NCBI GenBank assembly: GCA_965371805.1
Contig: CBDUZW010000005.1
Location: forward strand, 28,926 to 92,925
Direction: 5' to 3'
From: an uncultured bacterium
Lineage (GTDB): Bacteria > Acidobacteriota > Aminicenantia > UBA2199
Length of the DNA stretch: 64,000 nt
Part shown: positions 5,910-45,719 of the stretch, piece by piece
How positions within the stretch are numbered: the first letter of the stretch is position 1
Layout of the letters: every line of letters begins with the position of its first letter
The notes under the pieces: model-generated
The model's input: the letters and a program-made list of their open reading frames with translations, nothing else
What the model was told of the DNA's origin: nothing
Databases searched by the model: none
Position numbers and translations under genes: made by a program

Positions 5910-6033
5910 AATAATTACTCCATTTTATCTAATATTTTAAATATCAAATAAGCCTAAAAAACATTAGATGCAATAATGCCAATAAAAGTTTCGCTTACTT
6001 TAACAAAAAAAAATAACAGAGAATAATTTTGCT

Positions 6034-7413
6034 TTAAATATTATCTAAAGCATTAGAAAGATCTTTAATTATATCATCCGGGTCTTCAATTCCAACAGAG
6101 ATTCTACAGGTTGCTGCTTTAATACTTGCCAGAGCCCGTCCCTCTTCTCCCTGCTGCTGGTGAGTTGAGATTGCATTCAATGTTGCAACAGTTTTTACTC
6201 TACCAAGGTCTGTTGCTCTCCAGATCATTTTAAGGTTATCATAAAAAATACGTGAATTTTTTGAACCATCCGGTGTGTCCTCTTTTATCTCAATAACCAT
6301 CATATATCCGTACATATTTTCATCGGTATCAGCCAATTTCATATATTTTTTTGCAATATCATGTGCTGCATAAGTTTCTAATCCTGGATAATGAACCACA
6401 TCGACTTTAGGATGATTCTGGAGGAATTTTGCAACTTTAAGAGCAGTTTTACTCATTTGGTCAACCCTCATCCTCAATGATCTTAAATCATTTAATGTTA
6501 AAAATGCTGACATTGGACTTATTGCCGGTCCGTTATCTCTGAATGGCCATAACTTTGCCCAGAATGCAAAATTCGCCTTCATTTCCTCTGAACCTATTTT
6601 ACTGACTATATTATTTCTTGAAGTTAATAATCCTATTATAGAGGTACCACTTGCTCCAATAACCTTTGATGCAGACTGTATAACAATATCGGCTCCATGA
6701 ACAATTGGTCTTGTTAAAGCGGGAGATGCACATGTTGCATCAACAATAAGAGGACAATCAAAACTATGTGCAATTTTAGCAACATCTTCGATATCGAAGA
6801 TAGCTACTGCCGGGTTTGAAGGAAACTCCCCATAAACATATCGAGTTTCTTTATCAACTAAGGATTTCCACTCATTAATATCTGTTGAATCTTTTACCCA
6901 TCTAACTTCAATTCCATTTTCTACAAATCGCCTTACCCAGAATTGCTGAAATGTCCCGCCATATACCTTTGCTGACGCAACAATATTTGGTTTTTTATAA
7001 TTATCATCCTTAACTAAAAATGGATCTGTCGCAGTTCTAATGGCTGCCATTCCACTGGCGGTTGCACAGCAACTGGCTAAAATGTCTGAACCATAGGTTT
7101 CAAGCAAGGCAGTAGTTTCTTCAAGGTAAAGAGATGTGGGATTTGCAATTCTTGAATAACACCAGGTCGGCATTTCATAGGCAAGAGCTGCTTCCATATG
7201 ATTGCTGTCTACATATGCTTCCGCAGGACTAAGGTAAACAGGTTCCATTATTGATCCGTAATTATGATTCATTGCCTCTTCAAAATCATAAACACCATGT
7301 GTTGCAATAGTATCAAATTTCCAGCTTTTGGCCTTCTCTATCCGTTTGCTTCTATCAGCCATCATCTCCTTTCCTTTTTCTACCCATTCTTCTTTAGTTA
7401 ATTTTTTATTCAT
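6034..7413 (-). CDS. PLP-dependent Cys/Met-metabolism family enzyme (O-acetylhomoserine sulfhydrylase / methionine gamma-lyase-like)
   Basis: 459 aa. N-terminal YSRIANPT...LEETTALLE. PLP-lysine context IVIQSASKVIGASGTSIIG. C-terminal HYPGLETYAAHDIAKKYM, matching the family signature V.YPGL.SHP.H.LA..QM. Confidence 0.6.
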   Translation of the reverse strand: MNKKLTKEEWVEKGKEMMADRSKRIEKAKSWKFDTIATHGVYDFEEAMNHNYGSIMEPVYLSPAEAYVDSNHMEAALAYEMPTWCYSRIANPTSLYLEETTALLETYGSDILASCCATASGMAAIRTATDPFLVKDDNYKKPNIVASAKVYGGTFQQFWVRRFVENGIEVRWVKDSTDINEWKSLVDKETRYVYGEFPSNPAVAIFDIEDVAKIAHSFDCPLIVDATCASPALTRPIVHGADIVIQSASKVIGASGTSIIGLLTSRNNIVSKIGSEEMKANFAFWAKLWPFRDNGPAISPMSAFLTLNDLRSLRMRVDQMSKTALKVAKFLQNHPKVDVVHYPGLETYAAHDIAKKYMKLADTDENMYGYMMVIEIKEDTPDGSKNSRIFYDNLKMIWRATDLGRVKTVATLNAISTHQQQGEEGRALASIKAATCRISVGIEDPDDIIKDLSNALDNI

Positions 7414-8396: not shown

Positions 8397-8565
8397 CCAA
8401 AACCTACTGCAATGCCCGATATGCCCATTCTAACTGTGTAAATTTCAATCGTCTTCATTTCAAAATAGTGAAACTATTCTTCATTCAACTCAATCATTTT
8501 ACTTGTTATAAAGGACATCTCGAGCATTTCGCTACAATTTTGATGAAAACTTCAGAAACGTAGGT
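8397..8565. repeat. Copy A of a ~165-bp diverged direct repeat (copy B at 59694..59860)
   Basis: aaacctactgcaatgcccgatatgcccattctaactgtgtaaatttcaatcgtcttcatttcaaaatagtgaaactatt... aligns with 59694-59860 at roughly 84% identity, about 24 mismatches over about 150 nt, in the same orientation. It sits in the divergent intergenic region upstream of the LarE-like gene. Confidence 0.8.
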
Positions 8566-8602
8566 TTAATAATAACAGTAATTAGTGTATAATTATTCTG
8601 AT

Positions 8603-9106
8603 ATGGAAATAATACCGGATAGAGCTGAATTTAAAAGAGCGGAAGTTGAGAAAATCACAAGTTTATCTGGAAATGTTTTGGATTATTGGGAAGGAGAATT
8701 TTCTGCTTTTTTTCCCAAAAACAAAAATGGAGCAAAGACCTATTTATATAAAGATGTACTAATAATATTACAAATCAAACAATACCTTACAGTTGAAAGA
8801 TTAAATAAAGCTGAAATTAAAGAAAAACTAAAAGAAAATATTGAAATCACAAATAAATTGATTGAGAAAGATACTGAAAAAAATAATTCTTTTAAAAAAA
8901 AACCCCCTGAAGAAATCAAGCAAAAAACAATACATCCAATTGAATCCACTCCAAATATCAAAAATATTAAGCAAAGAAACCCTATACAAGAGCCAAAAGA
9001 GGAAAAGAAAAAACAAAAAAATAATAAAAACCAGCTTAGTATCATCAAACAGGACTTACACAAAATATTGACAATTCTTAAAAATAGTGATAGAAAAGGT
9101 AATTGA
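8603..9106 (+). CDS. MerR-superfamily HTH protein with K/E-rich low-complexity C-terminus
   Basis: The ORF track gives 8585..9106 with a GTG start; the first ATG is at 8603. [16 protein letters not shown] ... [30 protein letters not shown] fits the MerR HTH plus dimerization-helix pattern. Weak assignment. Confidence 0.4.
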
Positions 9107-9107
9107 T

Positions 9108-9184
9108 CGGGGCGTAGCGCAGTCTGGTAGCGCACACGCTTGGGGTGTGTGAGGTCGGTGGTTCGAATCCACTCGTCCCGACCA
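9108..9184 (+). tRNA. tRNA-Pro: tRNA-Pro (anticodon GGG in the best fold; UGG in an alternative register)
   Basis: CGGGGCGTAGCGCAGTCTGGTAGCGCACACGCTTGGGGTGTGTGAGGTCGGTGGTTCGAATCCACTCGTCCCGACCA. 7-bp acceptor stem, U8, D-arm GCGC/GCGC with GG in the loop, anticodon stem CACGC/GTGTG with loop TTGGGGT, T-arm GGTGG-TTCGAAT-CCACT, discriminator A, encoded CCA. Confidence 0.85.
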
Positions 9185-9227
9185 TTAATTTTATTCATTC
9201 AAATTTAGGATCAAATAATGAGGAATA

Positions 9228-9992
9228 ATGAAGACAATTTTAATTACAAATGATGACGGCTACATGTCTGAAGGAATCATTTTACTAACAGAACAACTTC
9301 GGAAAAAATATAATGTTTTTGTTGTCGCTCCAGACAGAGAGAGAAGTGCCATTAGTATGGGTTTAACCTTGAATACCCCATTAAGAATAACACAGGTAGG
9401 AAAACAGAATTTCATTACAACAGGTACTCCAATTGATTGTATTAATCTTGGATTAAAGATTGCACTTCCAGTAAAACCGGATCTTATAGTTTCAGGTATT
9501 AATCATGGAGAAAATGTTTCTGAGGATATTTTTTATTCAGGCACAGTTGCCGGAGCTTTTGCGGGACATCTCCATGAAATAAACTCAATTGCCATTTCTT
9601 TTGCAATCGGAAAAAAGATAAAAACTGTTTCAACGGAACAGTTAAAAGAATCTGCGGTTATTTCTATAAAAGTAATTGATAAAATTATTGAAACAAGTTT
9701 TAATAATAGGGTTTATAATCTTAATATTCCAGTCCCAAATAATGGAACAGTATTAACAACTTATCCTGAAAAAAAAAAATATGTCCCGGATCTAATTGAA
9801 AAAACAGACCCAAGAGGTAGGAAATACTATTGGCTTGGCACCGGCAACCCCCTATACTCAGAAAATTTTGGAAGTGATTCTCATGCTATCAAAAACGGAT
9901 ACATCTCGCTTTCTACACTCAAATATGATCTGAGCTGTAAAGACACAGAATATGGAAAAGTTTTTGAACAAATATCCCAAATTACGGAGTAA
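9228..9992 (+). CDS. surE: 5'/3'-nucleotidase SurE
   Basis: MKTILITNDDGYMSEGI... (NDDG motif), 254 aa, typical SurE length and N-terminus. Confidence 0.85.
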   Translation: MKTILITNDDGYMSEGIILLTEQLRKKYNVFVVAPDRERSAISMGLTLNTPLRITQVGKQNFITTGTPIDCINLGLKIALPVKPDLIVSGINHGENVSEDIFYSGTVAGAFAGHLHEINSIAISFAIGKKIKTVSTEQLKESAVISIKVIDKIIETSFNNRVYNLNIPVPNNGTVLTTYPEKKKYVPDLIEKTDPRGRKYYWLGTGNPLYSENFGSDSHAIKNGYISLSTLKYDLSCKDTEYGKVFEQISQITE

Positions 9993-13702: not shown

Positions 13703-14191
13703 ATGTATGTAAAAAAATTATTGAGATGGTTGATTTTTATTATTGGTTTCTGCAGTTTTATTATCACCTTTAATTTTGCACAATCTGACAAAACGGTTAA
13801 AATTGATAACGAAACTGTTAAAGTCATGCCTTTTGTAAAAGATAATTCATCCTGTCTGGAGTGTCATTCATCAAATGAACTTGAAGCAAAGGGTAATGAT
13901 CTGACCAAAAGCTGTAATACTTTCTGCAATAAATGTCATAATGAAAAACTGGATGATTCACATCATAAGGTAGGAATGGAGATCAGCTTTAAGATCCCAC
14001 CAGATATTGCTCTATTTGAGAATAAGCTGGCATGTGTCTCATGTCATGATCTTAAAAACCAGAGATTTTCAAAAGAGCCTTGGAAATCACAGAGTCTATT
14101 TGGAAGAATGTTCAAGGGTAAATCAAAATATAAGTCCTATTATCTGATATTAAATAATAGGAAAGGCAAACTTTGTAAATATTGTCATTAA
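13703..14191 (+). CDS. Small membrane-anchored tetraheme c-type cytochrome
   Basis: 162 aa. N-terminal hydrophobic anchor. Four CxxCH motifs: CLECH, CNKCH, CVSCH, CKYCH. Confidence 0.65.
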   Translation: MYVKKLLRWLIFIIGFCSFIITFNFAQSDKTVKIDNETVKVMPFVKDNSSCLECHSSNELEAKGNDLTKSCNTFCNKCHNEKLDDSHHKVGMEISFKIPPDIALFENKLACVSCHDLKNQRFSKEPWKSQSLFGRMFKGKSKYKSYYLILNNRKGKLCKYCH

Positions 14192-14203
14192 TAATAAAAT
14201 CAC

Positions 14204-14755
14204 ATGGAGGAAAAAATGAGTGAAGAAAAAAGAAAAATTAAATTAATTAACAGGGACTTTCAGTATAAGTTAATGGCTAAATTTATATTAATAAATGGCT
14301 TAATTTTAGCTCTTTTTGGAGCTATTATTTATGTTTTTTTTAATAGCGAAATAGATACTAACTTAAAATCAGCTACAGCGGCCTATTCCAGTGTAGCTCA
14401 GATGCTTCTACCTATAATTGTGACTTTGTCTGTATTGGCAATATTGATCACATCAATTATAATTATTATGGTTGTATTAAATGCATCACATAAAATTGCA
14501 GGTCCACTCTTTCGCTTCAATAAAGCGCTCAATGAAATTGAAAATAAAAACCTTAAACCATATTCCAATATCAGGGCTAAAGATCAGTTAGGTGGATTAG
14601 CCGATTCGTTTTCAAAAATGACCGATGTTCTCGCTTCTGATGTTTCGAAAATGAAGGAGTTAACCTTGGAACTATCAAATACAGTTATAGACCCAAAGGG
14701 AAAAGAATTGGTTGAAGAATTGTATAAATTAATTTTAAGCTATAAATTAGACTAA
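14204..14755 (+). CDS. TM-TM-HAMP-only membrane protein
   Basis: Two TM helices (FILINGLILALFGAIIYVFF; LLPIIVTLSVLAILITSIIIIMVV). HAMP-like HKIAGPLFRFNKALNEIENKNLKPYSNIRAKDQLGGLADSFSKMTDVL. No output domain. Confidence 0.5.
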   Translation: MEEKMSEEKRKIKLINRDFQYKLMAKFILINGLILALFGAIIYVFFNSEIDTNLKSATAAYSSVAQMLLPIIVTLSVLAILITSIIIIMVVLNASHKIAGPLFRFNKALNEIENKNLKPYSNIRAKDQLGGLADSFSKMTDVLASDVSKMKELTLELSNTVIDPKGKELVEELYKLILSYKLD

Positions 14756-14770
14756 AAAAGGAGAAAAAAA

Positions 14771-15562
14771 ATGAGAAATTTTAAGACAGTGATCTATTCA
14801 TTTGTTTTAGTTATTCTGGGAGTTATGTTCTCAACAAATTTACCTGGAGAATCTAAAGTAAAAAAATCAAGTCCTGATCAGACTATAAAGCAGCTTAAAG
14901 CTGGAAATGAAAGGTTTGTTGAAGGAAAAAGTATACATCCACATACAAATTCTGCCCGTTTAAAACAGGCCGGGACAGAAAACCAGGGAGATCATGCTTA
15001 TGCAACTGTTATTACCTGTTCAGATTCCAGAGTACCGGTAGAGCTTTTATTTGATGCAGGCGTTATGGATATTTTTGTTATCAGGGTTGCCGGCAATGTC
15101 TGTGATGTAGATGAGATAGGATCAATAGAATATGGGCTAGCCCATGTAAATACTCCAGTACTTGTTGTTCTAGGCCACACTCAGTGTGGAGCTGTAACTG
15201 CTGTTACTCATGCTGTTCATGGAACTGGACATGCTTTAGAAAGAAATATTCCTCCTCTAGTAGATAATATTGAGCCTGCAGTACGCCGTGCGATATCTGC
15301 TCATCCTGATGTCAAAGGGAATAATATTATTCCATATGCCATAGAAGAAAATGTCTGGCAGGGTATTGAGGATCTGTTTATGGAGAGTCCTTCGACTAGA
15401 AATCTGGTAAAACAGGGCAAAACTAAGGTTGTTGGAGCTATTTATGATGTCGGCACAGGAAAGGTACATTGGCTGTCAGAATTAACAGTTCAAAACATAC
15501 TTAATAAAGTAAACTCCTCATCAAAAAGAGCAATGAATGCAATGGCAAAAAGTGGCCATTAG
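14771..15562 (+). CDS. Secreted beta-class carbonic anhydrase
   Basis: Signal peptide. Beta-CA zinc-ligand motifs CSDSRV and GHTQCGAV. 263 aa. About 88% identical to the N-terminal domain of the next ORF, a tandem duplicate. Confidence 0.75.
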   Translation: MRNFKTVIYSFVLVILGVMFSTNLPGESKVKKSSPDQTIKQLKAGNERFVEGKSIHPHTNSARLKQAGTENQGDHAYATVITCSDSRVPVELLFDAGVMDIFVIRVAGNVCDVDEIGSIEYGLAHVNTPVLVVLGHTQCGAVTAVTHAVHGTGHALERNIPPLVDNIEPAVRRAISAHPDVKGNNIIPYAIEENVWQGIEDLFMESPSTRNLVKQGKTKVVGAIYDVGTGKVHWLSELTVQNILNKVNSSSKRAMNAMAKSGH

Positions 15563-15580: not shown

Positions 15581-18331
15581 ATGAAGAGTATAAATAAAAA
15601 TATATTTTTAGTTATTATGATTTTATTATTTAGTTCAACAATCTTACAACTTTTTGGGGAGAGTACATCAAAAAAACCAAGTCCGGATGAAATAATCAGA
15701 ATGTTAAAGGATGGAAACAACAGATTTGCTACAGACAAAGGAATCTACCCCAATATAAGTACAGCCCGTCTAAGGCAGGCAGGTACTGAAAACCAGGGAA
15801 ATCATGCATATGCGACTGTAATCACATGTTCAGATTCCAGGGTACCTGTAGAGCTTCTATTTGATGCAGGAGTTATGGATATTTTTGTTATCCGTGTTGC
15901 AGGTAATGTATGCGATGTGGACGAAGTCGGATCGATCGAATATGGCCTTGCACATGTAAATACTCCCGTCCTTGTTGTTCTTGGTCATAAACAGTGTGGG
16001 GATGTGACTGCTGTAACTCATGCTGTTTTTGGTACAGGACATGCACTTGAACGTAATATACCACCACTGGTAGACAATATCGAACCGGCAGTCCGCCGTG
16101 CAATCTCCGCTCACTCAGATATTAAAGGGGATAATATTATTCCTTATGCAATTGTAGAGAATGTCTGGCAGGGTATAGATGACCTTTTTATGAAAAGCCC
16201 TTCAACCAGAAATCTTGTCCAGAGTGGAAAAGTCAAGGTAGTAGGAGCGATTTATGATGTTGGGACCGGAAAGGTGGAGTGGCTTCCACAATCGAAAACT
16301 GATCAAATCCTGAGAAAGGTAAATTTGTCCTCAGGACGTGCGATTGAACCAATGGCAGGATCTGAACATAAGTCAGGAAAGGATAAAACTACTTCCCATG
16401 AAGTAAAAAGTGAACATGAAACAAAAAATGTAAGTCAGGGTACAACAAGTGCTCATAAGGAAAGCAGTTATATAAAAAAAGATATATTAAGCAAATCGAA
16501 AAGAGCCCAGAGCAGAGATTCCGGTTACTCTGCAATCACCTGGCTATTTATTTTTCTTGGAATAACATTTGCCGGAGGAATCTTATTATTTATATTTAAA
16601 GGAGGCGAGAATATGAGTATAAAAAATTTAAAAGTAGGCACCAAGATCTTTGGCATGGTATTGATAATCTTAATTTTCTTAGTAATAACTACAATAGTAA
16701 GTATAGGAAAGTTGGGTTCTATTGGCGAAGAGATAAAACAGATTGCACATGAGGATATACCTTTAATTGAGTCTATAACAAAGGTTACAATGCATCAATT
16801 GGAGCAGTCGGTCTTGTTTGAAAGGGCACTGCGGTTTGGTGAGACCAAAAACAAAGAGGGTCTCAAAGAGGCAGAAAAAGAATTCGAAAAAATTTCAAGT
16901 TTAGTTGATGAAGAAATTAAAGAAGCCGAAAAGGTGGCGGAAGAGGCAGTAAAGAAATCCTTACATCCTGAAGAAAAAAAAGAATTCGAAGATATTTCAG
17001 ATCAACTTAAGGTAATCGAAAAGGAACATGGCAATTATGAGAGACATGTTGCAGAAGTATTTGAATTTCTCAACCGGGGAGAGCTTCATAAGGCAGAGGC
17101 AAAATCTGAAAATATTGAAAAGGAAGAGAAACAGTTGAATGAGGAATTGGGGAAACTCCTAAATGAAATTGAAAAATTTACCGAAAATTCTACATTAACC
17201 GCTGAAAAAGATGAAAAAGCTGCAGTAAAGTTTATTCTAATTCTAGGTTTCTTTGCAGTAATAATTGGTTCATTGCTGGGATTTTTTATAACCAGAATGA
17301 TCACTGTTCCAATAAGAAAAGCTATGAATATAGCAGATGACCTTGCCAAAGGTGATCTGAGTATGGAAATAGTGGAAATGGGAAAAGATGAGACGGGACA
17401 ATTAATGGCATCCCTAAAACTTATGGTTGAAAATTTGAGGGGCATAGTGTTTGAAATACAGACAGCCTCTGAAAATGTTGCTTCGGGCAGTGAAGAGTTG
17501 AGTGCATCGGCTCAATCTTTAGCCGAAGGTTCAACAGAACAGGCTTCATCAGCAGAGGAGATATCCTCTTCAATGGAAGAGATGGGAGCAAATATACAAC
17601 AGAATACAGATAACGCAAACCAGACTGAAAAACTATCAACAAAAGCATCTGCAAATGCAAAGGATAGCGGGGAAGCAGTAACCGAAGCAACTTCAGCAAT
17701 GAAAGAGATAGCCGGCAAGATAAATATAATTCAGGAGATAGCCAGACAGACCAATCTGCTTGCCTTGAATGCAGCAATTGAAGCTGCAAGAGCAGGGGAA
17801 CACGGAAAGGGATTTGCAGTTGTTGCCTCAGAAGTCAGAAAACTGGCTGAAAGAAGTCAGAGTGCTGCTGAAGAGATAACCGAACTTACCAAGAATAGTC
17901 TCGGAGTTGCGGAGAAAGCTGGAGAAATGTTAAATATCCTTGTTCCCGATATTGGCAAAACAGCTGATCTGGTTTCAGAAATAACTGCATCAAGTACCGA
18001 ACAGAATCAGGGAGCGGGTCAGATCGTAAAGGCCATAAATGAGCTTGATAAAGTTGTGCAGGCTAATGCAGGTTCGTCAGAGGAGATGGCATCAACATCA
18101 GAGGAACTTTCATCCCAGGCACAGCAGTTACAATCAACAATATCATTTTTTAATATTGGCAATGAAAGATCACGAGCACAAACCTCTTTCCAGCAGAAAA
18201 GAGCCCCTCAAACTCCAGCAAGAGCAACTATGGTTCAACCTGCAAAGCAGCTGAAACCAAAAACAGGTGGAATGAAACTTGACATGGGATCAGGCACAGA
18301 CAAAGAAGATGGTGATTTTGAGAGATTTTAA
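15581..18331 (+). CDS. Beta-carbonic anhydrase domain fused in frame to a methyl-accepting chemotaxis protein (signal peptide-CA-TM | TM-4HB-like-TM-HAMP-MCP signalling domain). Alternatively two genes with no intervening stop: CA 15581..~16610 and MCP from ATG 16614
   Basis: N-terminal 250 aa duplicates the upstream CA ([14 protein letters not shown]). Then a linker, [23 protein letters not shown], and an internal AAAGGAGG-N6-ATG at 16614 giving the MCP-like start [21 protein letters not shown] ~190-aa helical periplasmic domain, TM, HAMP ([17 protein letters not shown]...), and the canonical MCP core [41 protein letters not shown]. Confidence 0.7.
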
Positions 18332-22758: not shown

Positions 22759-25700
22759 ATGTTAAATTTTAAAAATGGAATTTTCATTTCCATGTTATTA
22801 ATGTTTTTTTTAGTTTCTAATGGAGCATCCCAATCCACATTAATGCTCACACAACCGGCCGTAAGTAAAACAAACATAACATTTAGTTATGCAAATGATC
22901 TCTGGGTTGCAGATCTGAATGGGAAAAATCTCAGACGTTTAACTTCTGCTTCAGGTGTAGAAACAAATCCATTTTTTTCTCCAAATGGCAAATATATTGC
23001 CTTTAGCGGGAATTACGATGGAAACACAGATGTATATTTGATCCCTGTAGAGGGTGGAATACCAAAACGTCTGACCTGGCATCCAATTGGAGATACTGTC
23101 AGAGGTTTTTCCAGTGATGGAAAAAAAGTGATCTTTGCGTCCAATCGTTTTGCCGCAACAAGAGGAAGAGCAAAATTATATTCAGTTTCTTTAAAAGGTG
23201 GATATCCGATGCCTTTGGAATTGCCTTTCGCAAACAAACTCACCTACAGCCCTGATGGTGCCTATATTGCCTACATTCCTTATGCAGAGGTTTATAATCA
23301 GTGGAAAAATTATAGAGGAGGAACTTATACTCAAATATGGATATTCTCTCTCAAAACTAAGAAAATTGTAAAAGTTCCCCAACCCGCGGGACGCTGCAAT
23401 GACACTGATCCTTTCTGGCTAAACGGAAAGATCTATTTTAGATCCGACCGAAATGGAGAGTTTAATCTATTCTCTTATAATGTAAAAAGCCAAAAATTAG
23501 TCCAATTAACCAGGTATAAAAAATTTCCAATACTAAATATGAATGCAAATGCTGGAAACCTTGTCTTTGAACAGGCTGGAAGAATCATAAAATATAATTT
23601 AAAAAACAATTCTTCAACCCCTATACAAATTAAAATTGCATCGGATCTGAAAGAGGTCAGGATAAGATATAGTAGTAATCCAAGGTTTATTCGTTCAGGC
23701 AGTATTTCCCCCAGTGGTGCAAGAGCTGTATTTGGATATCGTGGCGAGATAATTACCGTCCCTGCCAAAAAAGGAGATCATCGAAATCTGACAAATACAG
23801 TGTCGGTACATGAAAGATTTCCTTCCTGGTCACCGGATGGCAAAAGAATCGCCTATTTTTCAGATATGGGAGGAGAATATATACTTAAAATTGCCCCTCA
23901 ATCCGGAAAGGGTGAATCGAAAAATTATAAAATTCCAGGTGCTGGTTTTTACACAAGTATTTCATGGTCCCCCGATAATCAAAAACTTTGCTTTACGGAT
24001 AATGCCCGTAACATTTTTTGGCTGGATATTAAATCAGGAAAGATCTTAAAAATCGACAGTGAGCCTCATTATGCTCCGGGAACCTATGGATCCATGATAG
24101 GTAGATGGTCTCATGATTCTAAATGGATTACATACCATCTCAATAATACAACTAAAATGAGTCAGGTATATGTATATTCTATAAAGTCGGGAACATCTCG
24201 ATTACTAACTGATGGCCTCAGTGATATATCTGAGCCTATATTTGACCCAAGTGGTAAATACATGTACTTTCTGGTTTCTACTGATGCGGGCCCGATTAAA
24301 CACTGGTTTGAGATGTCCAATTCAGATAAGAGGATGAGCAGCACTATTTATCTTGCCACATTACAACAAAAAACACTTTCTCCTCTCGCTAAGGAGAGTG
24401 ACGAAGAATCAGTAAAGGAAAAAAAGAAAAAAACTGATGATAAGAAAAAAAAGGCAGGGAAAAAGGCAAAGAAGAAAGAAGAGTTTAAAATTGATTTTGC
24501 AAATTTGGAGCGGCGTATTATTGCCTTACCAATAAAAAAAGGAATATACTTCAATTTACAAATCGGAAAAACTGGCGATATCTACTATCTGCAGTTTGAT
24601 CCTGAAAGCCGAAGTAGTGCTTTACACCATTATTCCCTAAAAAAAAGAAAGGATGAGGTTTTAGGTTCCGGAATACGTGATTACCAACTTTCTGCTGACA
24701 ATAAAAAAGTGCTGGTCCGATACAGAAGAGGATGGTCAATTGTTCCACTTGGAAAGATTAAACCGGGAAAGGGCAAGTTATCAACAGGCAAATTTTCTGT
24801 TAAAGTTAATCCAAAAGCTGAATGGAACCAAATTTTTAAAGAAGCATGGAGAATAAACAGGGATTACTTTTATGACACCAATATGCATGGTGCTGATTGG
24901 AATGCCATGTATAAAAAATATGAAAAATTCCTTCCCCATCTAAGTTGCAGACAGGATTTGAATAGAGTCATCCAATGGATGTGCAGTGAGCTGGGTGTAG
25001 GGCATCATCGAGGCGGTGGTGGAGAATTTATAGATCAAGCTAAAAGAATCCAGGTTGGATTATTGGGTGCAGATTATGAAATCGTAAATAATAGATACAA
25101 ATTCAAAAAAGTTTACGGCGGATTAAACTGGAACCCTGATTTAAGATCGCCACTAACAGAACCTGGAGTTAATGTAAAAGCCGGAGAATTTCTTTTTAAA
25201 GTTGATGGCAAAGCAATAAAATATCCGGAAAATGTCTTTAAATATTTTGAAAACAAAACAGGTCAAATCATAGAACTATCCATCAGTTCTGATGTTCAGG
25301 GTACCAAAATTCGAAAAGTGAATATTGTCCCTGTAAACCAGGAATTTACATTACGAAATAGAGACTGGGTAGAGAAAAACCTTGCCTATGTAACAAAAAA
25401 GACCAATGGCAGAGTAGCCTATGTTTATGTACCAAATACAGCAGGAATGGGGCATACATATTTTAAACGTTATTTTTACCCGCAGAGCAATAGAGAAGCG
25501 ATCATTGTTGATGAGAGATTTAACGGCGGCGGTCAGATCGCGGATTATTATATCGATATGCTGAAAAAGGATTACAGCTGCAGTTGGGCTTACCGTTATG
25601 GAAAGGACCAGCATTCACCATCTTCCGGTATTTTCGGACCCAAAGTTTTATTAATAAATGAAATGGCAGGCTCCGGTGGAGATCTCTTCCCATGGATGTG

Positions 25701-26022
25701 GAGACAGGCCAAACTGGGTAAAATGATCGGCACACGAACATGGGGTGGACTGGTTGGCGTATTGGGATATCCGGTCTTAATGGATGGCGGAAGAATAACT
25801 GCTCCTAATGTAGGATTCTGGACTGAAAAAGAAGGATTTTCAGTTGAAAATGAAGGAGTTGCTCCTGATATAAAAGTGGAACAGACACCAAAACTTATGC
25901 TTATGGGCAAAGATCCTCAACTTGATAGAGCGATTGAAGAGGTAATGAAAGAATTGAAAAAAAATCCAGTAAAAAAACCAAAACGACCACCATTTCCAAT
26001 AAGAGGAAATAATAAAAAATAA
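22759..26022 (+). CDS. Tricorn-protease-like multidomain peptidase (N-terminal beta-propellers + PDZ + S41 C-terminal peptidase domain)
   Basis: 1087 aa. Signal peptide. TolB-like repeats (NDLWVADLNGKNLRRLTSASGVETNPFFSPNGKYIAFSGNYDGNTDVYLI). The C-terminal half has S41-like architecture. Length and order match tricorn protease. Confidence 0.75.
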   Translation: MLNFKNGIFISMLLMFFLVSNGASQSTLMLTQPAVSKTNITFSYANDLWVADLNGKNLRRLTSASGVETNPFFSPNGKYIAFSGNYDGNTDVYLIPVEGGIPKRLTWHPIGDTVRGFSSDGKKVIFASNRFAATRGRAKLYSVSLKGGYPMPLELPFANKLTYSPDGAYIAYIPYAEVYNQWKNYRGGTYTQIWIFSLKTKKIVKVPQPAGRCNDTDPFWLNGKIYFRSDRNGEFNLFSYNVKSQKLVQLTRYKKFPILNMNANAGNLVFEQAGRIIKYNLKNNSSTPIQIKIASDLKEVRIRYSSNPRFIRSGSISPSGARAVFGYRGEIITVPAKKGDHRNLTNTVSVHERFPSWSPDGKRIAYFSDMGGEYILKIAPQSGKGESKNYKIPGAGFYTSISWSPDNQKLCFTDNARNIFWLDIKSGKILKIDSEPHYAPGTYGSMIGRWSHDSKWITYHLNNTTKMSQVYVYSIKSGTSRLLTDGLSDISEPIFDPSGKYMYFLVSTDAGPIKHWFEMSNSDKRMSSTIYLATLQQKTLSPLAKESDEESVKEKKKKTDDKKKKAGKKAKKKEEFKIDFANLERRIIALPIKKGIYFNLQIGKTGDIYYLQFDPESRSSALHHYSLKKRKDEVLGSGIRDYQLSADNKKVLVRYRRGWSIVPLGKIKPGKGKLSTGKFSVKVNPKAEWNQIFKEAWRINRDYFYDTNMHGADWNAMYKKYEKFLPHLSCRQDLNRVIQWMCSELGVGHHRGGGGEFIDQAKRIQVGLLGADYEIVNNRYKFKKVYGGLNWNPDLRSPLTEPGVNVKAGEFLFKVDGKAIKYPENVFKYFENKTGQIIELSISSDVQGTKIRKVNIVPVNQEFTLRNRDWVEKNLAYVTKKTNGRVAYVYVPNTAGMGHTYFKRYFYPQSNREAIIVDERFNGGGQIADYYIDMLKKDYSCSWAYRYGKDQHSPSSGIFGPKVLLINEMAGSGGDLFPWMWRQAKLGKMIGTRTWGGLVGVLGYPVLMDGGRITAPNVGFWTEKEGFSVENEGVAPDIKVEQTPKLMLMGKDPQLDRAIEEVMKELKKNPVKKPKRPPFPIRGNNKK

Positions 26023-26041
26023 CAAATATATGATTTAGAAG

Positions 26042-26078
26042 AAGTAGCAGAAATTGAACTTAATTTCTGCTACTTTTT
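26042..26078. terminator. Bidirectional rho-independent terminator between convergent genes
   Basis: GTAGCAGAAATT-gaactt-AATTTCTGCTAC, a perfect 12-bp stem, then TTTTT. Confidence 0.7.
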
Positions 26079-26095
26079 CGAATATTCCAACAGAA

Positions 26096-27775
26096 CTATT
26101 TATTCTTCATATTTTTCTTTTTAAGATTAGATATCAATTTTATAATAGCTAGAAAAGGCAGTAAAAATATAAAAATAATTCCTCCATAAGAAGTTACGGC
26201 AACATTTCTGTTTAAAATAAGATCCATTCCAAAGTTTGAGAATGGGTTATCATTAATGAGATAAGCCCAGGTTGATGATGGCCGGCTCAATCCTTCCTTT
26301 TTGGGATCAAAATCATCCAGAGACAGTTCCAAATCCTCATAGGTACTTTTTGATTTTTTTGTAATTATTGCAATTAATGTTTTAAATTCATTATGAACCT
26401 GATTTCTATATTGATCCAATGGTTGGACGCCTCCATATCTCATGAGATGTATCCCCTCTTTTATTGCAATTACCCTTTCAAGAAAGTTGCTCCATACTTG
26501 ATCTATATAAAACAAAATAACATATTTTTCTACCTCTCTAATTTTCTCTAATGAATTATTTTTCAGGAGTAAATCATACTTATTGGAACTCAATACTGAC
26601 ACATTAAATATACTAGTATTGCTCTTTAGAATATCTGTCCTTAGTTTCTCAAATATTTCCCTTTGCAACTCTGTGATATTTGAGTAATCCCATAGAGTCT
26701 TTCTGATCTCAAAATTATCGCTCTCTATTATTCTCTGAGCCCTGTTTATCTCTTTTGCAATAAAATGATCTGCTATTGCTTCCTGACTATCCCGGGGCCA
26801 GAATCTTTCTGGGATTATATTATCCAGACGATATCTTTTTATCAAATCATCATCCATACTAATGAAAAACTCGGATACTCCAGGATCCCCCTGCCTTCCG
26901 GCTCTTCCTCTCAGCTGATTATCAATCCGCCTGCTCTCATGTCTGTTTGTCCCGATGATATAAAGCCCACCTGTTTTAGATACAAATTTATATTCCTCTT
27001 TTGATCCAGCCCCCAGATGAATATCAACTCCTCTACCTGCCATATTGGTTGATATTGTTATCTTATAGGGTCTCCCTGCCTCAGCAATGATTTTTGCTTC
27101 CTGTTCATGGTTTTTTGCATTTAAAACACTATGAACGATATCTCTGTCTCTTAACTGCGAACTTAATAATTCCGATTCATAGACGCTTCCAGTCCCGATT
27201 AACACCGGCTGACCTTTTTCATTTATTTCAATTATTTTTTCTAATAAAGCCTTGTCTTTCGCTTCTTTTGAGGAATATATCCTATCCGTTTTATCTATTC
27301 TTCTATTTTTTTTATTAGGCGGAATTATCGTTATCTTAAAATTATAAAAAGAAAAAAACTCACTGGCAGCTTGAACAGCAGTAGCTGTCATACCTGAAAG
27401 ATTTGGATACAGTTTTACAAAATGCTGTATGGTTATTGAGTTAAATATGATTCCTTCTTCATTAATAAAAAGATTTTCTTTCAGTTCTACAGCCTTATGA
27501 ATACCATGAGGCCATCTTCTTTTATCAGCAATTCTTCCAGTAAATTGATCTATAATCTCAATTTTCCCATCCTTTATAATATAGTCCTTATCTTTTTCTA
27601 ATAATACCTTTGCATGCAGGGCTAAATTTACAGCGATAAAGGTTTTTTGGTTCTCAATGGCAAATATATTGGATATACTAAAATGTTTTTCAATCAGAGC
27701 CCAAATGCCGCATAGCTCACAATTCAGACTGGATCTTATACTGGCTAATGAAGTATTCGCAGGTGAACGATTCAA
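26096..27775 (-). CDS. secA: SecA homolog lacking the N-terminal ~300 aa (no NBD1 / Walker A); retains PPXD-NBD2-helical scaffold, with an atypical hydrophobic C-terminal tail
   Basis: HFSISNIFAIENQKTF aligns to SecA ~HFSVDEKSRQVNLTERG. RWPHGIHKAVELKE; NBD2 TNMAGRGVDIHLG...GGLYIIGTNRHESRRIDNQLRGRAGRQGDPGVSEFFISMDDDL; IRA1 LMRYGGVQPLDQYRNQVHNEF. All three frames upstream (27776-27840) contain stops. The C-terminus lacks the zinc finger and ends in a TM-like GGIIFIFLLPFLAIIKLI. Confidence 0.6.
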   Translation of the reverse strand: MNRSPANTSLASIRSSLNCELCGIWALIEKHFSISNIFAIENQKTFIAVNLALHAKVLLEKDKDYIIKDGKIEIIDQFTGRIADKRRWPHGIHKAVELKENLFINEEGIIFNSITIQHFVKLYPNLSGMTATAVQAASEFFSFYNFKITIIPPNKKNRRIDKTDRIYSSKEAKDKALLEKIIEINEKGQPVLIGTGSVYESELLSSQLRDRDIVHSVLNAKNHEQEAKIIAEAGRPYKITISTNMAGRGVDIHLGAGSKEEYKFVSKTGGLYIIGTNRHESRRIDNQLRGRAGRQGDPGVSEFFISMDDDLIKRYRLDNIIPERFWPRDSQEAIADHFIAKEINRAQRIIESDNFEIRKTLWDYSNITELQREIFEKLRTDILKSNTSIFNVSVLSSNKYDLLLKNNSLEKIREVEKYVILFYIDQVWSNFLERVIAIKEGIHLMRYGGVQPLDQYRNQVHNEFKTLIAIITKKSKSTYEDLELSLDDFDPKKEGLSRPSSTWAYLINDNPFSNFGMDLILNRNVAVTSYGGIIFIFLLPFLAIIKLISNLKKKNMKNK

Positions 27776-27799
27776 AACCAGCGGGATCGGCTTTCAATT

Positions 27800-28274
27800 A
27801 AACAGTCAGATAACCAAACAATTATTTTTTCATATATTTTTCAGAAACACAGGAGCAATTTTTTATGATGAAGAAAACCCCTTTGCCGGACGTGCTAATA
27901 GGGCGTCACTTTCTCTTGATTATCAGCCATTTGAAAAAATCAGCAACAGTATAAGTCTTTCTTACTCAAATTTTATCAGAAGCTCAGATAGTGAAATAGA
28001 ATATGATTATACTATTGTGAGAAATTATACAACTTTTCAATTGAATAAATACCTGTTTTTCAGAGGTATTGTTGAATATAATTTTTATAAAAAAATTCTC
28101 CAATTGGATTTTCTGGCATCCTTCACCTATATACCCGGTACCGTAGTGCATATAGGCTATGGATCAATTTTTGAAAAGCAGAAATGGGATGACAATAATT
28201 ATGTTAATAGTGATAGATTCATGGAAAATCATAGAGCATTCTTTTTTAAGGTTTCATACCTGTGGAGACTATAA
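27800..28274 (+). pseudogene. C-terminal fragment of an outer-membrane beta-barrel protein (no N-terminus or signal peptide)
   Basis: Alternating beta-strand pattern YDYTIVRNYTTFQLN / FFRGIVEYNFY / LDFLASFTYIPGTVVHIGYGSIF / AFFFKVSYLWRL. The 5' part of the tracked ORF 27657..28274 is antisense to the secA fragment. Confidence 0.3.
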
Positions 28275-40363: not shown

Positions 40364-42940
40364 ATGATAAAACAACAAAACAAAATCTATCCATTTACAA
40401 TTTTATCTATCCTCTTTATCCTTTTCTCAAATCTGCCTGCTCAAAATAATACAATAAATTTCCAACATCTATCTTTGGAAGACGGATTGTCGCATAGCAC
40501 TATAAATTGCATTTTTCAAGATAGCAGGGGATTTTTATGGTTTGGAACAGATGATGGTTTAAACAGATATGACGGTTATAATTTTAAAATATTCTTAAAT
40601 GATCCTGAAAAACCTGGAACAATCTCCAGTAATCGCATTAGAGGAATATGCGAAGATGAGGATGGGAATCTCTGGATTGGGACATTTGGTGGATTAAATA
40701 CATTTAATATTAGAACAGGGCGCTTTGCCTCCTATACATTTCATCCTGATATAGAATCAAGACAAAATATAATATGGTCAATGGCTATAAATGATGGATT
40801 CCTATGGGTCGGGACTGAATCCGGATTGATAAAGTTTAATACTAAATCAAAAAAATATAATAACTATAAATTAAATTCAACTCAGTCCAAATTTCAAAGG
40901 AAAACTTTCATAACCATAGTATACATAGATAACTCAAAAAAAATCTGGATTGGAACTAAACATAACGGTTTATATACATTTAAAGAAACAACAAATTCAA
41001 TTGTTCCTTTTAAATATAAACATTCAAAAAACCCGAGTTTCAGAAGTATTAGAAATCTATTCAAAGACCAATCCGGCATATTATGGATCGGCACAGAGTA
41101 TGGAGGTTTAATCAAATATAACAGTCAAAATCAAGAACCTACTTTTTACAAACATATCCCCGGGATTAAGGGATCTATAAGCAGTAATGACATACAATCG
41201 ATATTTGGAACAAAATCAGGAGATCTGTGGATTGGGACCAATGCAAATGGCTTAAACAAGTATAATTCTGCAACAAACAGTTTCACCCTGTACGAACATG
41301 ATCCCAAAAATGCAAACAGCATTAGTCATAACAGTATTCTTTCAATGTATGAGGACAATTCAGGGGTTTTATGGATTGGAACTTATGCAGGAGGGATAAA
41401 CACACTTAACAAAAGTAAAAAAAGATTCGATGTCTTAAAAAATGAACCTGGGAATCCAATCAGCCTCAGTAACAGTACAGTATTTTCAGTTTATGAAGAG
41501 TCTAATGGAATAATCTGGATAGGCACTATTACAGGTTTAAACAGATATGATAGTAAGAATAATCTTTTTAAAGTATATAGTCACGACAAAAACAACCCTA
41601 AAAGTATTAGTCATAATGTTGCAAGAGCTATTTATAAAGATGATAAAGGAAATTTATGGATAGGAACTGATAATGGACTAAATAAATTTAATAGAGAGGA
41701 TGAGACATTTTCTATCTATAGAAACGCCATTACCATTAAGAACTATTCATCCAATTGGCAGAACATAATCCGTTCAATTATTGCTGATAATTCAGGAAAA
41801 CTTTGGATAGGAACACAAAATGGGATCTGTACATTTGATGAAAAAAAAGAACAATTTACATATTATAGATATGATGAAAATAATCAAAACAGTCTTTCAT
41901 CAAATACAGTCAGAGTATTATTAAATGACAGAGACGGTCTTATATGGATAGGCACTGAGAATGGATTAAATAAATTTAATCCAGAAACAAAAGAATTTTT
42001 CATTTATAAACACAACCCCAAAAACCCGCATAGCATTAGTAGTGATAATATCTATAGTATCTTAGAAGATAAAAAAGGTCTGATTTGGATTGGAACAAAA
42101 AAAGGATTAAATGCTTTAAACAGAAAAACAGGTCTATTTACAAACTATACAGAACATGACGGATTGGGAAATGATATTGTATACTGCATTCTTGAATCTA
42201 ACGACAATAATTTATGGCTCAGTACTGATAAAGGCATAACAAAGGCATATAATAGCTTAAAAAACATTGACTCATCAGTAAAAGATCAAAAATTGAAATT
42301 TAGAAATTTTGATATAAAAGATGGTGTGCAGGGACATGAGTTTAATTCAGGCGCCTCATTCAAAAGTAATAAGGGAACTTTGTACTTTGGAGGAATGAAT
42401 GGATTAAATATATTTGACCCGGAAAAAATAATGACTGATAACAGCTATATTCCGCCTGTAGTCTTAACTGAGTTCAGATTATTTTCTGAAAAAATATCCA
42501 TACACTCAAGGATCGATGGAAAAACCATATTAAGTAAGCCAATAGAATTGACAGAAAAAATAGTACTTCCTTATAATGCAAACTATATCTCCTTTAAATT
42601 CACAGCATTAGATTTCACTTGCACAAAAAACAATAAATTTGCCTATATGATGAAAGGATTAAGCAATGAATGGCACTACCTTGGCACAAAAAACGAACTT
42701 GATTTTCATCTTTCTCCAGGAACATTTATTTTAAACATAAAAGGTTCAAATAGTGACCATGTCTGGAATGAAAATGGAGTATCGATAACAATCATTATAA
42801 ATCCCCCTTTTTGGACTACAATATGGTTTAGAATAGCCGTTTCCATGTTTGTCTTTTTAGTGATATTTTCACTATACAGAGTCAGAATATACAATATTAA
42901 AAAAAAAATATCCAACTCAGCAACCATAATGAACAATTAA
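40364..42940 (+). CDS. Hybrid sensor, part 1: signal-Reg_prop repeats-Y_Y_Y-TM; terminated prematurely after an A10 homopolymer (42899..42908)
   Basis: GLSHSTINCIFQDSRGFLWFGTDDGLNRYDG and 13 or more further propeller repeats. Y_Y_Y segment and TM TIWFRIAVSMFVFLVIF. The stop falls 11 codons after the A10 tract. Confidence 0.7.
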   Translation: MIKQQNKIYPFTILSILFILFSNLPAQNNTINFQHLSLEDGLSHSTINCIFQDSRGFLWFGTDDGLNRYDGYNFKIFLNDPEKPGTISSNRIRGICEDEDGNLWIGTFGGLNTFNIRTGRFASYTFHPDIESRQNIIWSMAINDGFLWVGTESGLIKFNTKSKKYNNYKLNSTQSKFQRKTFITIVYIDNSKKIWIGTKHNGLYTFKETTNSIVPFKYKHSKNPSFRSIRNLFKDQSGILWIGTEYGGLIKYNSQNQEPTFYKHIPGIKGSISSNDIQSIFGTKSGDLWIGTNANGLNKYNSATNSFTLYEHDPKNANSISHNSILSMYEDNSGVLWIGTYAGGINTLNKSKKRFDVLKNEPGNPISLSNSTVFSVYEESNGIIWIGTITGLNRYDSKNNLFKVYSHDKNNPKSISHNVARAIYKDDKGNLWIGTDNGLNKFNREDETFSIYRNAITIKNYSSNWQNIIRSIIADNSGKLWIGTQNGICTFDEKKEQFTYYRYDENNQNSLSSNTVRVLLNDRDGLIWIGTENGLNKFNPETKEFFIYKHNPKNPHSISSDNIYSILEDKKGLIWIGTKKGLNALNRKTGLFTNYTEHDGLGNDIVYCILESNDNNLWLSTDKGITKAYNSLKNIDSSVKDQKLKFRNFDIKDGVQGHEFNSGASFKSNKGTLYFGGMNGLNIFDPEKIMTDNSYIPPVVLTEFRLFSEKISIHSRIDGKTILSKPIELTEKIVLPYNANYISFKFTALDFTCTKNNKFAYMMKGLSNEWHYLGTKNELDFHLSPGTFILNIKGSNSDHVWNENGVSITIIINPPFWTTIWFRIAVSMFVFLVIFSLYRVRIYNIKKKISNSATIMNN

Positions 42941-44711: not shown

Positions 44712-45719
44712 CTAAAATTTATTCTCATGAAGTTCCCACTCTTCGGTTTCCTCATTTTCGATAAGTTGTATCAATTTTTCATTTCTTATATCAAATGGAT
44801 ATGGGCGAATCCCATCTCTTAGCTTTAAGTTTATAAAAGCCTCCTTAATCAATTTACCCTTTAAATCATAAATTAATGTTTCATACTTTTTATTCTCTTT
44901 TTTATAGGTTATTAAGTAAAGAATATCGTTTGAAACAATTATATTCATAAGTTTTGGAAAAAACTCTGGAAAAACAAACCTGTCTTTAATTCTATCATAT
45001 ATCCCGACAGGCATATTTTTTTTCATTAATTTTCGCATCTCTTTTTCAGTATTACTTGAAAGTTTCACCTTCTTTTTAACAAGTGGTATTGATAATTTTC
45101 TTTTTCCCATATCATCAAAGACCCCTAGATCACCTGTATCACTCATTGCATATATCAGGTCCTTATAGACATAAAAGAGTACTGAACTTGCCATTCCGAA
45201 CACATCCATTTTGTTAAAACTTCCAACAGGGAATTTGGATAATGCCCTGCCCTTTTTTAAGTCTTTGTCAAAAAGACTGATCATTGAATATAATTTAGTC
45301 TCCACAGAAGTCATACTGGATCCGACAAATCCCTTTTTCAATGGAAAATAATTTGGAATAGACATGGCACCAGTGGTCTTTATCTCTTTTAAATATTTCC
45401 CCTCTTTTGTAAAGAACGAAACCTTTCCCTGGCTATTAATCAGGATAGACTCAGCTGAAGGAACAATTCTAGCTACATTACCAATGAACTCTTTAGGCCC
45501 CTCACCCTTTTTTCCAAATTTTTTAATGAGTTTATAATCCTTTAATGAATAAATATAAACAGTTGTTCCCTCTGCAACATAGAGTCTTTCACTATCAGAG
45601 ATTATAAATTCCGGCTTCATAACCTCACCTAATGTCGCAATAACCTCTCCAAAAACCATTCCGGTTGCCAAAAAAGTTAAATTTAATAAAACTAAAATAA
45701 CTAAAATAATTTTTTTCAT
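44712..45719 (-). CDS. Secreted/lipoprotein-like beta-propeller-type protein, paralog of 4872..5909
   Basis: Signal peptide MKKIILVILVLLNLTFLATG. KKGEGPKEF motif. C-terminal EEWELHENKF. Confidence 0.45.
   Translation of the reverse strand: MKKIILVILVLLNLTFLATGMVFGEVIATLGEVMKPEFIISDSERLYVAEGTTVYIYSLKDYKLIKKFGKKGEGPKEFIGNVARIVPSAESILINSQGKVSFFTKEGKYLKEIKTTGAMSIPNYFPLKKGFVGSSMTSVETKLYSMISLFDKDLKKGRALSKFPVGSFNKMDVFGMASSVLFYVYKDLIYAMSDTGDLGVFDDMGKRKLSIPLVKKKVKLSSNTEKEMRKLMKKNMPVGIYDRIKDRFVFPEFFPKLMNIIVSNDILYLITYKKENKKYETLIYDLKGKLIKEAFINLKLRDGIRPYPFDIRNEKLIQLIENEETEEWELHENKF

Follow-up and report, generated by a model that had tools for sequence, protein, structure and literature searches.

The 64,000-nucleotide (nt) stretch of DNA analysed here, which we call the window, comes from an uncultured bacterium of the Aminicenantia (GenBank assembly GCA_965371805.1, contig CBDUZW010000005.1, positions 28,926 to 92,925). 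It is about 33% G+C and densely coding, and between its positions 26,096 and 28,274 it carries the 3' ends of two genes that diverge from a single point: on the minus strand the C-terminal two thirds of a SecA2-like gene, and on the plus strand the last quarter of a gene for an outer-membrane barrel protein of the CBM9 plus DUF5916 type. Both remnants are dead, neither being able to do its original job, and the open reading frames (ORFs) of 559 and 205 amino acids (aa) reported at this place are gene-caller artefacts. We consider it probable that the arrangement is a deletion scar, in which one illegitimate recombination removed the DNA between two divergently oriented genes and left the two 3' remnants behind.

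The SecA2-like remnant occupies positions 26,096 to 27,694 of the minus strand and corresponds to residues 276 to 806, plus the stop codon, of P0002, an 806-aa protein that is encoded at locus L001 and is the only close relative of the remnant. By tblastn, P0002 residues 276 to 797 align with window positions 27,694 to 26,129 at 78% identity with 0 gaps and no frameshifts or stops, and blastn against L001 gives 75.6% identity over 1,555 nt (window 26,140 to 27,690); the matches of the remnant have E = 0, far beyond chance. It contains the second half of the PPXD, NBD2, the helical scaffold and wing, and the native C-terminal tail, and so has these last domains of a SecA2-like ATPase, in which the kept NBD2 motifs are TNMAGRG.DI and RGRAGRQGDPG. 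Missing from it is the NBD1 of such an ATPase, with its Walker A (GxGKT) and DEAD/Walker B motifs. In P0002 the Walker A sequence GEGKT and the DEAD motif VDEAD (VDEADFILIDEA) both lie within residues 1 to 275, for which tblastn finds no counterpart anywhere in the window. The Pfam matches of the window ORF agree in extent: P-loop_SecA (7e-67) and SecA_SW (3e-21) are found, SecA_PP_bind is covered at profile positions 40 to 110 of 110 alone, so that the PPXD is incomplete, and of SecA_DEAD just the last 44 positions are matched (246 to 289 of 290).

A sequence-only reading of this DNA had described the minus-strand frame as collinear with SecA from about residue 300 onwards, without a Walker A-containing NBD1 and with all three upstream frames closed. 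The collinearity is borne out, as is the absence of NBD1, and stops are found in all three upstream minus-strand frames; the truncation point is instead residue 276 of P0002, inside the PPXD. Since SecA requires NBD1 for the binding and hydrolysis of ATP, and NBD1 is confirmed to be missing, the further statement that such a product cannot be a functional translocase ATPase also holds.

The gene had been read as secA, and here the profile searches point to a different assignment. Against the NCBIfam model for SecA2 (TIGR04221) the window ORF aligns to profile positions 263 to 754 of 762 and scores 506.4 bits, below the cut-off of 725, whereas full-length P0002 passes it with 754.8 bits; the window copy is thus a fragment of a member and not a member. 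Against the model for housekeeping SecA (TIGR00963), with its cut-off of 800 bits, the window ORF reaches 449.8 and P0002, also below, 724. The top match by sequence among solved structures is SecA2 of Mycobacterium tuberculosis (4uaq, residues 282 to 766). On these scores the gene of origin is a SecA2-type paralogue, probably an accessory one, and not housekeeping secA, and its loss, if it was accessory, need not affect viability. What makes a SecA accessory is a separate housekeeping secA in the same genome; the window encodes no other SecA, the housekeeping type included. Below P0002 in the search of a protein database of 5.8 billion proteins stand hundreds of metagenome proteins of about 780 to 830 aa at 44 to 51% identity; those that have been given a name by their sources are called 'accessory Sec system translocase SecA2' and are assigned to Aminicenantes, Acidobacteriota and Planctomycetota. 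Where shorter family members are listed, the record is marked partial or the gene is an incomplete one on a short contig. The same short SecA-like protein was sought in a close relative without success, the sole close relative being full length. A scan of contigs with the remnant gave, among the matches listed, generic SecAs of the candidate phyla radiation (CPR) and of other bacteria at 36 to 45% identity.

The 559-aa ORF as called (26,096 to 27,775, minus strand, TTG start) is longer than this remnant by a spurious 5' extension, positions 27,695 to 27,775, whose 27 codons from the TTG are antisense to the DUF5916 remnant. Upstream of 27,694 to 27,700 there is no similarity to P0002 or L001, so that the extension is not secA2 sequence, and reading the sequence by eye gave no evident Shine-Dalgarno-like sequence before the TTG.

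The barrel remnant lies on the plus strand at 27,701 to 28,274 and comprises the last ~190 of the ~740 residues of a CBM9 plus DUF5916 protein, ending in KVSYLWRL and a stop codon. From about position 27,696 the plus frame matches many DUF5916-type proteins (lowest E 6e-75), and NCBI gives the name DUF5916 to two of these; tblastn for this piece gives E = 1e-88, and its identity to the C-terminal ~200 residues of CBM9 plus DUF5916 proteins is 48 to 64%. The full-length relatives are 737 to 753 aa long and are matched by the window from residue ~518-545 onwards only, the first ~545 residues of the protein not being found in the window. Pfam recognises CBM9_1 and DUF5916 in the full-length protein of locus L135 and finds no match in the window fragment, the DUF5916 model stopping short of that C-terminal part. 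Two conserved barrel motifs, SFTYIPGT and FFKVSYLWR[FL], are both present in the fragment. Its AlphaFold2 model is all-beta, with 13 beta strands and a predicted local distance difference test score (pLDDT) of 93.4, and the fold matches in the PDB are all outer-membrane barrels (TodX, FadL, NanC, OmpG and porins), at template-modelling scores (TM-scores) of 0.37 to 0.58 that are modest, as expected for a partial barrel. An outer-membrane barrel requires a signal peptide and a closed barrel; the window fragment has neither a signal peptide nor the CBM9 domain. The homology, the model and the barrel-only fold matches together uphold the earlier description of a C-terminal outer-membrane protein fragment lacking a start and a signal peptide.

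The plus-strand ORF was called at 27,657 to 28,274 (205 aa), in a frame that is open over 27,588 to 28,274. Its single ATG (27,657) falls in DNA antisense to the secA2 remnant, and its N-terminus, MANILDILKCFS, is antisense secA2 sequence, so that positions 27,657 to 27,694, the ATG and 12 codons, are again a spurious 5' extension. The 559-aa and 205-aa ORFs overlap for no other reason than that each continues past the junction, antisense to the other remnant, up to a stop.

Many of the DUF5916 'proteins' in the databases are short, and their length is an artefact, due either to short contigs or to long-read assemblies riddled with frameshifts, in which a 410-aa ORF with CBM9_1 and DUF5916 directly precedes a 243-aa piece. 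On the long ENA contigs L082, L083 and L084 (samples ERZ25039459, ERZ25039514 and ERZ25039515) many genes are split into adjacent same-strand pieces, among them those for RuvB, PilM, Peptidase_C69 and DUF5916, a pattern typical of uncorrected long-read frameshifts. That the DUF5916 family is listed mostly as 'proteins' of 200 to 300 aa is thus due in part to long-read frameshifts, with incomplete genes on short contigs making up the remainder.

The point at which the remnants meet could be mapped from both sides, and DNA derived from secA2 changes to DNA derived from the DUF5916 gene within positions 27,687 to 27,700; two 5'-truncated remnants abutting at one breakpoint, as the sequence-only reading had it, is what we see. 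Reading downwards, identity to L001 is at background above 27,700 and is 10-13 of 15 from ~27,696. For the other side, a position-specific DUF5916 profile made from 72 distinct relatives was tested against all peptides in the six frames of the window. The peptide QMPHSSQFRLDLIL (27,702 upwards) scored 29.8 bits (p ~2e-5), FSIRA (27,687 to 27,701) was marginal (p = 0.008), and everything below 27,687 was at background (p = 0.15 to 0.8). The sequence shared at the join is at most about 10 nt, a possible microhomology. A dual homology of ~35-70 nt, which would have implied a repeat-mediated join and which tblastn had appeared to offer by reaching down to 27,627-27,660, was rejected on the lack of any profile signal below 27,687. 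Nowhere else in the window is there a repeat of at least 17 nt that matches the junction region, the junction has no mobile-element gene beside it, and the tetranucleotide signature stays uniform from one side to the other (r >= 0.96). A scan for promoters and terminators around the junction gave 20 sites against 14.5 +/- 3.2 expected, an uninformative result. We also considered a 16-nt exact direct repeat (27,656 to 27,671 and 22,984 to 22,999, plus strand; blastn-short E = 0.002), one copy of which lies in the secA2 remnant and the other at the start of the protease gene described below; it is A+T-rich and off the breakpoint, and was judged to be chance.

Neither remnant is decayed. In this 33% G+C genome 532 codons of secA2 and 190 of the DUF5916 gene are still open. 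The secA2 remnant retains 138 of the 139 columns that are invariant among 14 relatives, and a relative-rate test of its private changes against those of P0002 is balanced for 12 of 13 outgroups, with no acceleration. The barrel remnant, for its part, retains 50 of the 51 columns that are at least 95% conserved among 80 relatives. Since neither has decayed, the event that truncated them was recent, or, with lower probability, the join is an artefact.

The C-terminal tail of the SecA2-like remnant tells the same way. The sequence-only reading had noted a hydrophobic segment and no zinc finger at this end, both of which we find, and had taken the segment to have replaced the usual tail, which does not stand, for the tail is native to P0002 and to most relatives. 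In the window the hydrophobic segment (V525 to I548 of the called ORF; 26,132 to 26,203, minus strand) is followed by a Lys-rich end (26,099 to 26,131, minus strand), and the tail as a whole, VAVTSYGGIIFIFLLPFLAIIKLISNLKKKNMKNK, has a Kyte-Doolittle 19-mer maximum of 2.44 and no zinc-finger motif. A like tail is present in P0002, P0004, P0007, P0011, P0016, P0022 and P0071, in the order of a conserved STWTYLINDNPF motif (WTYLIND), about 20 to 25 hydrophobic residues and a Lys/Arg-rich end. A hydrophobic 19-mer (Kyte-Doolittle >= 1.6) past the WTYLIND motif is present in 73 of the 103 relatives whose C-terminus is complete, and neither these 103 nor the window tail have the zinc-finger motif CxC...C[HC]. 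In a planctomycete subgroup the hydrophobic tail gives way to a short one that is amphipathic and basic. Judged by its hydropathy and its distribution, the hydrophobic tail is a native trait of the family and bears no sign of decay; hydropathy alone suggests that it probably serves as a membrane anchor.

Evidence on the ancestral setting comes from the flank. An intact gene for a tricorn-like/S41 protease, assigned by NCBIfam TolB-propeller and C-terminal-processing-peptidase models, lies on the plus strand at 22,759 to 26,022, convergent with the secA2 remnant and separated from it by a spacer of 73 nt (26,023 to 26,095). We compared 80 DUF5916 loci from metagenomes, querying them with every large ORF of the window, and the protease is the only window gene with strong linkage to them. 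Its orthologues (53 to 57% identity) stand 6.7 to 7.9 kb upstream of the DUF5916 gene and on the same strand at L135, L156, L128 and L157, which are four of the 32 loci long enough for the linkage to be tested. From the linkage and the orientation in these relatives it follows that the DNA to the left and to the right of the junction stems from a single ancestral neighbourhood, and this favours a local deletion over a random assembly chimera.

These four loci form a subset of high-G+C relatives with conserved gene order. At L135 (100 to 10,672) and L156 (166 to 10,672) the order is protease (+), BlaR1/M56 peptidase (-), further genes and CBM9 plus DUF5916 (+), with an aldo-keto reductase also in the interval at L135, and this order may point to a gene neighbourhood that functions in envelope proteolysis. 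A PD40 protein encoded beside secA2 at L167 was checked as a possible counterpart of the window protease and is unrelated to it.

We propose the following sequence of events. The ancestral order would have been the tricorn-like protease (+), a SecA2-like gene of ~800 aa (-), probably with an upstream ORF (uORF) for an arrest peptide as in its relatives, possibly further genes, and a CBM9 plus DUF5916 gene of ~740 aa (+). A single illegitimate recombination, using a microhomology of at most about 10 nt, would then have excised the whole stretch between secA2 codon 275 and DUF5916 codon ~545, at least ~3 kb in all, comprising 0.83 kb of secA2 with its leader and promoter, ~1.65 kb of the DUF5916 gene with its promoter, and possibly the genes between; both figures, that for the microhomology and that for the length lost, are estimates. 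The two 3' parts would have been left diverging from 27,687 to 27,700. The secA2 piece now has no Walker A, no DEAD motif, no start codon, leader or promoter and half a PPXD, and the barrel piece has lost the signal peptide, the CBM9 domain and some two thirds of its barrel. We infer that this loss took place in the cell and not in the assembly, as we do the size and content of the segment lost.

Several results weigh against such a history. The linkage of protease and DUF5916 is seen at just the four loci named above, and is absent from the most similar DUF5916 relatives (L087). None of the 80 DUF5916 loci contains a SecA2 gene and none of the five SecA2 loci examined contains DUF5916, so that the two are neighbours in no relative and the order before the deletion is a reconstruction; the closest SecA2 locus, L001, has no synteny with the window beyond secA2 itself. 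The junction 30-mer has no exact match in the JGI metagenome collection. That both remnants are perfectly preserved is something an assembly artefact would produce as well. Lastly, the search of the 5.8 billion proteins with the N-terminus of P0002, which returned nothing above 60% identity, did not list P0002 itself, and its completeness is uncertain.

What any explanation has to account for is observed directly, namely the identities and extents of the two remnants, the position of their junction, the absence of decay and the linkage of the flank in relatives. The sequence-only reading had offered three causes, a deletion or rearrangement breakpoint, a decayed paralogous secA copy and a chimeric join in the assembly, and of these the first fits best. 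A chimeric join, in which an assembler brought together two places of the same or a closely related genome or skipped a stretch and both genes are intact in the organism, we regard as unlikely. The window appears to be metagenome-assembled, records of the 559-aa product that spans the junction exist only in NCBI, ENA and Logan and for one contig, the junction was not recovered from an independent collection, and both remnants are wholly undecayed, as if the genes really were intact. The records in NCBI, ENA and Logan nevertheless suggest that the junction was recovered by more than one assembly pipeline. If the join were random, DUF5916 would not stand beside the same-strand upstream neighbour that it has in four relatives, and this conserved linkage disfavours the artefact; nor was a shared repeat found that would be long enough for a k-mer join, with an overlap of at most ~10 nt and no window repeat of 17 nt or more that matches the junction region, and the composition does not change across the join. 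A broken assembly should also have left an orphan N-terminal secA2 piece at ~78% identity, and none is on record. An inversion or translocation between the secA2 and DUF5916 sites, with the 5' halves joined elsewhere in the genome, would by breaking two genes produce exactly two 5'-truncated genes diverging from one point, and the visible part of the genome is 64 kb only. We nonetheless hold it to be improbable. Neither 5' half is in the window, and no N-terminal secA2 fragment of the expected identity was found among the 5.8 billion proteins, which include the products of the contig itself; as an N-terminal piece from the same organism is expected near 78%, no reciprocal product is on record. 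The linkage of protease and DUF5916 and their relative orientation are moreover as in relatives, which a deletion preserves and an inversion of the flank would not.

That the remnant is instead a functional short gene we think very unlikely. It would be a tail-anchored piece without NBD1, expressed from the TTG at 27,775 or from an internal start, and would act alone, for instance as a regulator, or as one half of a split SecA2 with an N-terminal half encoded elsewhere. The long intact frame and the retention of all conserved residues of NBD2 and the scaffold speak for it, and N- and C-terminal fragments of SecA can reassociate in vitro. The break, however, is inside the PPXD and does not coincide with a domain border; codons 1 to 27 are antisense DUF5916 sequence, no ribosome-binding site is evident, and neither the native leader nor the promoter survives. 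P0002, the only close relative, is a full-length protein, the shorter family members listed are partial, no partner N-terminal half is on record, and an abutting gene truncated by the same event points to damage rather than design. An old secA paralogue in decay, with gradually eroded ends, is to our judgement the least credible account. The gene is a paralogue and it is incomplete, as such a history requires, yet its 532 codons have no frameshifts or stops, 138 of 139 invariant columns are kept without rate acceleration relative to P0002, the tail is native and not eroded, and the one truncation boundary is sharp and is common to the neighbouring remnant; the suggestion of a decayed paralogous copy is for this reason set aside.

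The deletion scar, if correctly read, has consequences for annotation and for the lineage. The 559-aa "SecA" and the 205-aa hypothetical protein in public databases should be flagged as pseudogenes, and neither record should be counted as evidence for an unusual SecA without NBD1. The SecA2-like paralogue and the DUF5916 barrel protein would be dispensable in this lineage.

The intact members of the SecA2-like family share a further feature. At all five full-length SecA2-like loci examined a uORF of 71 to 82 aa ends 51 to 130 nt before the SecA2-like start, all on the plus strand (L001, 9,728 to 9,949; L085, 7,635 to 7,880; L086, 7,674 to 7,922; L167, 2,628 to 2,870; L168, 2,723 to 2,938). These uORFs encode one or two hydrophobic N-terminal segments and have RAPP or RGPP (R[AG]PP) close to their C-terminus. 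Such features are the signature of RAPP-type ribosome arrest peptides, which monitor secretion and cause the sec genes downstream of them to be induced (PMC10987492, PMC10951233). No R[AG]PP-type uORF occurs anywhere in the window and, as all five full-length relatives have one, it would have lain in the deleted part. The presence of the uORF suggests that the intact family is a stress-induced accessory ATPase. In the searchable literature we found no description of a tail-anchored SecA2-like family or of SecA2 in Aminicenantes, which is not proof of novelty. We suggest, tentatively, that these proteins may form an undescribed SecA2-like class of about 800 aa, tail-anchored and, by way of the uORF, induced by ribosome stalling when secretion is impaired, in uncultured Aminicenantes, Acidobacteriota and Planctomycetota, which is being lost in the lineage of the window. 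If so, the window shows a lineage while it is losing the system, which would then be dispensable. With its tail-anchor-like C-terminus and RAPP/RGPP uORF the parent family is a candidate for studies of accessory Sec ATPases in didermic uncultured phyla.

Some other genes of the window deserve mention. At 15,581 to 18,331 (+) a 916-aa fusion joins a beta-carbonic anhydrase (Pro_CA, residues 78 to 232) to a full chemoreceptor (4HB_MCP, HAMP and MCPsignal), an unusual pairing by which CO2/bicarbonate chemistry could be connected with signalling in chemotaxis. Three large paralogues of the two-component-regulator-propeller/Y_Y_Y type, one with a GerE DNA-binding end, are found at 2,040 to 4,778 (-), 40,364 to 42,940 (+) and 53,709 to 57,065 (-); two were assigned by Pfam and the third was grouped with them by matching the same loci. 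A multi-copy family of ~335-345 aa with a faint TolB_like Pfam match is represented in the window at 4,872 to 5,909 (-) and 44,712 to 45,719 (-), and at L001 by four copies (148 to 1,110, 5,376 to 6,410, 8,476 to 9,507 and 13,832 to 14,842) that include both genes flanking the SecA2-like gene.

Set beside known systems, the parent family resembles SecA2 (TIGR04221, 4uaq) in its length of ~800 aa and in having no C-terminal zinc finger, and differs from M. tuberculosis SecA2, over the region aligned, in that most members have a hydrophobic C-terminal tail with a basic end; the window copy, unlike SecA2, is the C-terminal two thirds only. With housekeeping SecA (TIGR00963/PRK12904) it has in common the domain order from the PPXD onwards and the NBD2 motifs, and unlike it has no metal-binding domain and, in the window copy, no NBD1. 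Secondary SecA_DEAD proteins of the Planctomycetes-Verrucomicrobia-Chlamydiae (PVC) group have no SecA_SW and adjoin type I secretion genes (PMC4452313), and on both counts we rejected them as the same family. The uORFs share their signature with the RAPP/RGPP arrest peptides found upstream of sec genes (SecM, ApdA/ApdP and the RQH family). Relative to CBM9 plus DUF5916 proteins (PF06452 and PF19313) the plus-strand remnant is the last quarter only and folds as barrel strands. The junction itself, at which two neighbours are truncated with few shared bases and no mobile element, is like the pseudogene pairs that illegitimate, microhomology-mediated deletion generates in bacterial genomes and shows nothing distinctive beside them; a deletion scar with two gene remnants is an ordinary phenomenon.

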